Assembly: GCF_003018255.1 (NCBI RefSeq)
Contig: NZ_CP027440.1
Length of the DNA stretch: 64,000 bases
DNA from: Escherichia coli
Lineage (GTDB): Bacteria; Pseudomonadota; Gammaproteobacteria; Enterobacterales; Enterobacteriaceae
Reading direction: 5' to 3' (one strand)
The position numbers and the translations under genes are program-made. Positions 30,506 to 30,696 of the stretch are shown here, one piece after another. A model generated the notes under the pieces. That model saw nothing but the letters and a program-made list of their open reading frames with translations. It was not told the origin of the DNA and made no database searches. Numbering within the stretch: position 1 is the first letter of the stretch; each line of letters begins with the position of its first letter.

Positions 30506-30512
30506 TAACTGC

Positions 30513-30539
30513 GGCAGACAGGAAACTGTCTGCCTTTTT
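30513..30539 (+). terminator. Intrinsic terminator / attenuator immediately after hcp
   Basis: GGCAGACAG-gaaa-CTGTCTGCC followed by TTTTT, 8 nt after the hcp stop. Confidence 0.8.
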
Positions 30540-30696
30540 GTTGTGTGCTTTGTCCAGTGCCGCAGGCACCGGTACTGAGCAAAGCATACCCACAATCTGG
30601 TGAAACCTGATGGGCCTGTGTGAGGTAACGGCTATGGGCGGTAGCGTGCCTGAACGCGGATCGCAGGAATACAGAACACGATAAGGAAACCCTTCT

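Follow-up and report, generated by a model that had tools for sequence, protein, structure and literature searches.

The hcp-clpV spacer of the Escherichia coli T6SS-1 cluster: a conserved hairpin that probably acts as a leaky terminator ahead of an ops site

The T6SS consumes hundreds of copies of the tube protein Hcp per firing but few copies of ClpV and of the baseplate components, and the manner in which one operon delivers the Hcp:ClpV ratio is, to our knowledge, only partly understood. This question is raised by a T6SS locus of E. coli, located in a 64-kb window (the whole stretch of DNA that was analysed), in which hcp is followed by clpV after a spacer of 191 nt. The original prediction for this spacer was a strong intrinsic terminator immediately after hcp, functioning as a partial terminator that would allow the tube protein to be expressed well above the downstream genes. 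Here, the spacer is analysed with respect to its RNA structures, their conservation among related bacteria and their possible contribution to the excess of hcp message.

The locus and the T1 hairpin

The 801 bases around the hairpin, referred to as T1, match at 100% identity an E. coli chromosome annotated in RefSeq, in which the genes encode TssB, TssC, TssK, TssL, an OmpA-family protein, Hcp, TssH (ClpV) and VgrG, beside three tRNA-Met genes; the cluster is T6SS-1 (sci1-type). As had been predicted, hcp and clpV share the same direction, and the + strand 3' of clpV carries vgrG and then more T6SS genes to about 48.6-50.4 kb. The three tRNA-Met genes are arranged in tandem at 23247-23543, ~600 nt 5' of tssB, with mltA on one side and the T6SS cluster on the other, and tandem tRNA genes are a typical insertion point for islands. 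The features of the region on which the analysis is based are as follows.

28304..29956, + strand: OmpA-family (TagL-like) T6SS gene, the context 5' of hcp (ORF list; RefSeq annotation of the identical E. coli locus)
29962..29980, + strand: hairpin H0, ACCGCCGG-AAGAA-GGCGGT, between the stop of the OmpA-family gene and the hcp ribosome-binding site (sequence, scan, relatives)
30014..30505, + strand: hcp, encoding the T6SS tube protein, 163 aa (sequence, ORF list, RefSeq annotation)
30513..30534, + strand: T1, candidate terminator stem-loop with a perfect 9-bp stem and a GAAA loop (sequence, terminator scan, folding, covariation)
30535..30544, + strand: U-tract of T1, TTTTTGTTGT (sequence; conserved in relatives)
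30543..30589, + strand: HP2, RNA hairpin of ~19 bp, core 30549-30583, with a TTTG...CAAA base (folding, covariation)
30605..30648, + strand: JUMPStart-like element, comprising a conserved ACC and ATG, a 4-bp helix (30613-30616 with 30630-30633) and ops (alignments, covariation)
30637..30648, + strand (non-template strand for clpV): ops site GGCGGTAGCGTG, for predicted RfaH loading and pausing (exact consensus match)
30683..30687, + strand: predicted clpV ribosome-binding site AAGGA (inferred from sequence reading)
30697..33342, + strand: clpV/tssH (ORF list, RefSeq annotation)

The hcp reading frame ends with a TGA stop codon (30503-30505), directly followed by an in-frame TAA (30506-30508); this tandem arrangement occurs in the E. 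coli / Klebsiella oxytoca group, while a single TAA is found in most other genera. The perfect 9-bp hairpin with a GAAA loop and a run of T that the original prediction placed here is present, as GGCAGACAG-GAAA-CTGTCTGCC at 30513-30534 with TTTTTGTTGT as the next bases, and only its distance from the hcp stop, given as 8 nt, needs to be corrected to the 7 nt that lie between TGA and the stem.

T1 was ranked first among the terminator-like sites detected by a scan of 11 kb (9 pairs, 6 G-C, loop of 4). The 14 sites found in total, compared with 10.8 expected from shuffled sequence, are not above chance, and the scan alone therefore proves little for T1 and would even be compatible with a palindrome that arose by chance or belongs to a dispersed repeat and has no function of its own. 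Folding is more informative, as it yields -18 kcal/mol for a 40-nt segment and -16.6 kcal/mol for the bare hairpin, with a z-score of -4.4 against dinucleotide shuffles, none of the 200 shuffles being as stable. The terminator score, computed with a d'Aubenton-Carafa-type formula, amounts to +38.8 in the window and has a median of ~35 in relatives.

Within E. coli, the spacer was found in 1,289 of 5,426 complete genomes, as a single copy per genome, which argues against a dispersed repeat, and with an identity of at least 95% in nearly all of the 1,289; such near-identity means that E. coli alone tells little about constraint. A scan with the Hcp protein, restricted to one genome per species, provided 80 loci, mostly from Enterobacterales (Enterobacteriaceae, Erwiniaceae, Yersiniaceae and Morganellaceae) along with two from Pseudomonas. 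In about 70 of the 80 loci clpV is the next gene after hcp, typically following a spacer of 150-190 nt. Among 56 short hcp-clpV spacers, a hairpin starts 5-14 nt past the hcp stop in 55, and in 52 of them at 5-9 nt, while at least six T within the 8 nt after the stem were found in 50 of the 55 relatives with a T1 hairpin, in which the hairpin is represented by 41 distinct sequences.

When 59 distinct spacers were aligned with MAFFT, the T1 stem was found by RNAalifold unaided, with 98.2% of cells paired and changes on both sides in seven of nine pairs (alignment A1). When the T1, HP2 and JUMPStart-like helices were combined, neither any of 500 shuffles nor any slid register attained the five measures observed. 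The G.U to A.C ratio in T1 is 26:3, and such an excess of G.U indicates that the + strand RNA is what selection keeps. The same asymmetry rules out a function on the minus strand, as does the fact that neither hairpin is followed by a T-tract there. The conservation of T1 position over four enterobacterial families, together with the compensatory changes, refutes the chance or repeat origin of the hairpin, the probability of which is negligible, and T1 is a real and conserved hairpin that is very probably functional as RNA.

T1 also displays the anatomy of an intrinsic terminator, namely a stable, GC-rich stem with a short loop, an adjoining U-rich tract and sense-strand selection on the stem. 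The hairpin and T-tract also follow orphan hcp genes devoid of clpV (Xenorhabdus, L011 and L014), and the U-tract of T1 is retained in a locus without HP2 (L074). On the other hand, a G intervenes between the T1 stem and the T run in about 12 Enterobacter-type loci, with scores near zero, which counts against the terminator reading. In the two Pseudomonas loci (L037, L053; ~4500-4530), a close Hcp homologue is followed by a 13-bp GC hairpin with no U-tract, HP2 or ops; among the loci compared, the three-part spacer consisting of T1, HP2 and ops is specific to Enterobacterales. A separate case is that of Serratia oryzae (L019, L072), in which another insertion with GC-rich palindromes (CCCCTCTCCC...GGGAGAGGG) replaces T1 at ~60-140 of the spacer; no clear terminator is seen at the place of T1 in these two spacers, and HP2 and ops are kept. 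In Rfam, no family credibly matched T1, HP2 or the JUMPStart-like element.

A second hairpin, H0, precedes hcp, which is thus bracketed by conserved hairpins. All but three of the 65 distinct relatives (62) carry an H0-type hairpin of at least 6 bp, and in most of them 24-28 nt separate its end from the hcp ATG. The hairpin occurs in 50 distinct sequences, with a median z of -2.45. No structure was found by RNAalifold on the MAFFT alignment 5' of hcp, because loop lengths shift the 3' arms out of register, and a per-sequence analysis was used instead. In the relatives, only 1-3 T occur in the 8 nt after H0, so that a U-tract is absent.

Conserved hairpins flanking hcp are also what would be expected if T1 did not terminate transcription at all, and if endonuclease cuts between hcp and clpV and 5' of hcp released an hcp mRNA whose ends are protected by H0 and T1. 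Such a model has been proposed for the Yersinia pseudotuberculosis T6SS4, where mutation of the hairpin after hcp4 lowered hcp4 mRNA alone, with no rise downstream, and the hairpin was regarded as a stabiliser and not a terminator (PMC12503267). Similarly, deletion of region I of the EHEC hcp3 3' UTR also lowered hcp3 mRNA (PMC13141884). An exonuclease barrier, however, needs no U-tract, yet the U-tract is kept in the great majority of relatives at T1 and is absent at H0, which suggests that T1 has been selected for termination and not solely as an exonuclease barrier. Moreover, stabilisation and termination are compatible, and the explanation of T1 as a leaky terminator already includes stabilisation. 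Processing without termination is therefore considered unlikely.

HP2, the ops site and transcription beyond T1

The original prediction for 30506-30696 correctly identified T1 but overlooked two further elements, HP2 and the JUMPStart-like element with ops, which are central to downstream expression. HP2 folds with -29.5 kcal/mol (z = -4.85) and shows changes on both sides in 12 of 16 pairs, with 83% of cells paired in what is a non-structural alignment, and with a G.U to A.C ratio of 122:28. In most species, the 5' arm of HP2 opens with the T run of T1 (TTTGCTGAG...CTCAGCAAA), and no T-tract follows HP2. The covariation of HP2 as RNA, along with its beginning at or near the U-tract of T1, implies that RNA reading past T1 matters functionally. 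A terminator-antiterminator switch between T1 and HP2 was considered and rejected, since HP2, being located 3' of the U-tract, is transcribed too late to influence whether the polymerase terminates.

The sequence GGCGGTAGCGTG at 30637-30648, ~100 nt 3' of T1, is the only exact ops match in the 64-kb window, and about 18-20 kb of same-strand T6SS genes lie 3' of it. The ops core (GGGCGGTAGCGT) is invariant in the 59 aligned loci. The 4-bp helix (30613-16/30630-33) stops 3 nt before ops and has 97.5% of cells paired, three of its four pairs changing on both sides. Over ~40 nt, the JUMPStart-like block aligns with the rfb JUMPStart of the O-antigen leader, the query sequence for which has an exact match between galF and rfbB. 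The Rfam family RF01707 (JUMPstart; gathering score 35 bits) had no match at E <= 10 in 30480-30720, while the rfb leader, used as a positive control, reached 60 bits. Judged by alignment, the T6SS element is a divergent JUMPStart variant that falls outside RF01707.

The ops site is situated in untranslated hcp-clpV intergenic RNA, as the overlapping short ORF (30611-30685) is not conserved in frame. A small protein of 24 codons starting at ATG 30611 was rejected as a candidate, given that the variable length of the inserted hairpin alters its frame and stop from one species to another. No obvious Shine-Dalgarno sequence was found before ATG 30611, and this near-invariant ATG is probably conserved for a reason other than coding. 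A sigma-54 promoter at GGGCGGTAGCGT was likewise dismissed, the would-be -12 GC varying across the alignment (GTGCC, GTACC, GTGTC).

The ops site of this spacer, which is the most important element of the 191-nt span, has already been published. In a preprint of 2025, the 12-nt ops consensus is quoted as GGCGGTAGCGTG, and ops1 is located between hcp and clpV in EAEC sci1 and described as conserved in enterobacteria; mutation of ops1 abolishes sheath assembly in EAEC, and a reporter placed after clpV falls in ops1 and rfaH mutants, while a tssC-tssK reporter is unchanged (bioRxiv 10.1101/2025.02.08.637259). By sequence and position, the ops of the window is the orthologue of ops1. In uropathogenic strain CFT073 without H-NS and StpA, a ChIP-seq study found RfaH at c3392-tssH (PMC9765446). 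RfaH recruitment has thus been established by others at orthologous sites and would, by analogy, be expected at the ops of the window. In the Erwinia amylovora RfaH study, no ops was assigned to T6SS-1, only the region 5' of the cluster having been searched, and the strong drop of T6SS-1 expression in the rfaH mutant was called indirect (PMC9562583). The Erwinia aphidicola locus compared here (L027/L028) contains an internal ops between hcp and clpV (spacer ~4493-4676), and an internal ops of this kind would directly explain the drop.

A site at which RfaH loads needs an arriving RNA polymerase, and its origin is the point on which the leaky terminator is confronted with another explanation. 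According to the latter, T1 is a complete terminator closing the tssB-hcp operon, while clpV and the subsequent genes are transcribed from a separate promoter in the spacer, with ops in the leader. The high intrinsic score of T1 is in accordance with such an arrangement, as is the EHEC system, in which a terminator and a predicted promoter separate the operon of hcp3 from that of vgrG3 (PMC13141884). The CFT073 study places ops sites in 5' leaders and names 'potential promoter regions of tssH', which counts against read-through of T1 (PMC9765446). However, no sigma-70-like site with at least 9 of 12 matches was found in 30450-30700; at 8 of 12, 55 of the 59 aligned spacers had no hit and no alignment column had more than three, so that no site is positionally conserved. 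Furthermore, HP2 is selected as RNA directly 3' of T1 and must be transcribed from 5' of the T1 end, and the distance between T1 and the stop codon is one at which terminators were strongly repressed (PMC4824070). A separate promoter behind a complete terminator is thus quite improbable. The requirement of ops for an arriving polymerase, combined with the lack of a conserved sigma-70 promoter in the spacer, argues for partial read-through of T1.

Distance from the stop codon and the proposed mechanism

The effect of a nearby stop codon on an intrinsic terminator has been determined for tR2, the efficiency of which is ~90% at 28 bp from the stop codon and less than 10% at 5 bp (Li et al., PMC4824070). 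The decrease was attributed to the terminating ribosome, which blocks hairpin folding, and uncoupled translation restored termination (PMC4824070). The T1 stem begins 7 nt past the stop, and the terminating ribosome should therefore cover its 5' arm. Hence, the term 'strong' used in the original prediction is doubtful for T1 at its position.

Natural variation in this distance is provided by 16 loci in which an insertion puts T1 more than 85 nt from the hcp stop. In most of the 16, the insertion is an ERIC-type repeat of ~127 nt, which contains the complement of the ERIC2 primer and occupies intergenic regions of E. coli at a median of 10 copies per genome. Such a repeat separates the hcp stop from the terminator in L008, L030, L036, L039, L043, L054, L059, L070, L078 and L080 (~4493-4620), with a shorter ERIC-type copy in L081 (~4493-4575); a related repeat is found 5' of hcp in L028, L078 and L081. 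The median terminator score is -10.6 in the loci with a displaced T1 (by more than 85 nt) and 35 in the 48 stop-proximal loci (Mann-Whitney p ~5e-6), in a comparison that ignores phylogeny, includes a few far loci in which T1 was mis-detected and relies on the d'Aubenton-Carafa-type score. Lower scores of far loci are also observed within Rahnella, Serratia, Klebsiella, Yersinia and most Pantoea. The weakening of terminators far from the stop fits selection for leakiness.

Taken together, T1 is probably a conserved, leaky Rho-independent terminator and 3' protector of the abundant hcp mRNA, with ops loading downstream. The reading of T1 as a terminator is well supported by its anatomy and by the comparison of relatives, from which we infer termination itself. 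The original interpretation as a partial terminator is upheld with regard to terminator anatomy and selection at the RNA level, while its read-through component is backed indirectly. A partial terminator that sets stoichiometry is plausible, with precedents in other T6SS clusters.

In the proposed mechanism, T1 with its U-tract would end an hcp-terminal transcript inside the T6SS-1 operon and shield it from 3' exonucleases. When the terminating hcp ribosome is closely coupled to RNA polymerase, it would cover the 5' arm of T1 and prevent hairpin formation, which presumably accounts for leakiness and gating. Polymerase that has passed T1 would transcribe HP2, the 5' arm of which overlaps or abuts the U-tract of T1 in the read-through RNA, and would then pause at ops, where RfaH is predicted to load and to render the enzyme processive, so that it would transcribe clpV, vgrG and another 15-17 kb or so of genes. 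H0 and T1 would jointly yield a stable hcp message of ~580 nt (29962 to ~30540), in excess over the downstream genes. In the literature consulted, no transcript-end, coverage, read-through or Northern data on hcp-clpV were found for this T6SS family, nor Term-seq of a T6SS-1-carrying strain, and the Erwinia and Yersinia RfaH transcriptome papers contained no usable information on T1.

A more far-reaching reading, which is tentative and perhaps more doubtful than promising, regards H0-hcp-T1-HP2-ops as one conserved 'brake, then license' module, in which hcp translation would set T1 read-through and hence distal T6SS expression, HP2 would be needed between the terminator and RfaH loading, and the terminator would be weakened where ERIC displaces T1. 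In such a module, HP2 might mask the U-tract from RNase E/Hfq, bar Rho until RfaH loads, or protect a processed 5' end.

The work on RfaH and ops1 established that the distal half of the T6SS needs both and left the mid-operon position of the loading site unexplained. A leaky T1 before ops offers a coherent picture, in which most transcription would end after hcp and the RfaH-bearing polymerase would complete the remaining ~18-20 kb. If T1 is ordinary, it is one more intra-operon terminator. The H0-hcp-T1-HP2-ops arrangement, and HP2 above all, appears to be undescribed so far; no description of HP2 was found in the available parts of the ops1 preprint (bioRxiv 10.1101/2025.02.08.637259) and of the ChIP-seq study (PMC9765446).

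Comparison with known systems

The closest counterparts with respect to RfaH are EAEC sci1 ops1 and CFT073 c3392-tssH, which belong to the same cluster type and share the intergenic region and the 12-nt consensus. The word 'terminator' has no occurrence in the preprint (bioRxiv 10.1101/2025.02.08.637259), and PMC9765446 is silent on a terminator too.

With the JUMPStart of the galF-rfbB leader (RF01707), the T6SS element shares the ops sequence itself and a short hairpin whose end lies a few nucleotides upstream of it. It differs from JUMPStart in its stem sequence, in the extra loop hairpin present in many species and in its location, which is intra-operon, following a terminator and not a promoter.

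In terms of position, T1 resembles the tR2 series (PMC4824070) and the mccA-mccB terminator (PMC4231749), in which the stem lies a few nucleotides past the stop codon and a terminator separates a highly expressed first gene from less-needed genes. Unlike what is proposed for T1, ribosome binding in mcc induces termination and does not repress it (PMC4231749).

Among other T6SS clusters, the hcp stop is likewise followed immediately by a GC-rich hairpin in EHEC hcp3-vgrG3, with its 'h3R' (PMC13141884), and in Yersinia T6SS4 hcp4-tssE4 (PMC12503267). In both, hcp mRNA is far above that of the downstream genes and the hairpin stabilises hcp mRNA, features that are proposed here too, and the Yersinia T6SS4 model includes a second hairpin 5' of hcp, corresponding to H0. 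The E. coli locus differs from both in belonging to another T6SS family, in having clpV as the downstream gene, in the conserved U-tract, HP2 and ops that follow, and in the lack of an apparent promoter. The role proposed for T1 also sets it apart, as the Yersinia hairpin is non-terminating, and the EHEC hcp3 3' region, which both terminates and stabilises, is followed by a predicted internal promoter (PMC13141884), while T1 would combine termination and stabilisation of the hcp message with partial read-through towards the ops site.
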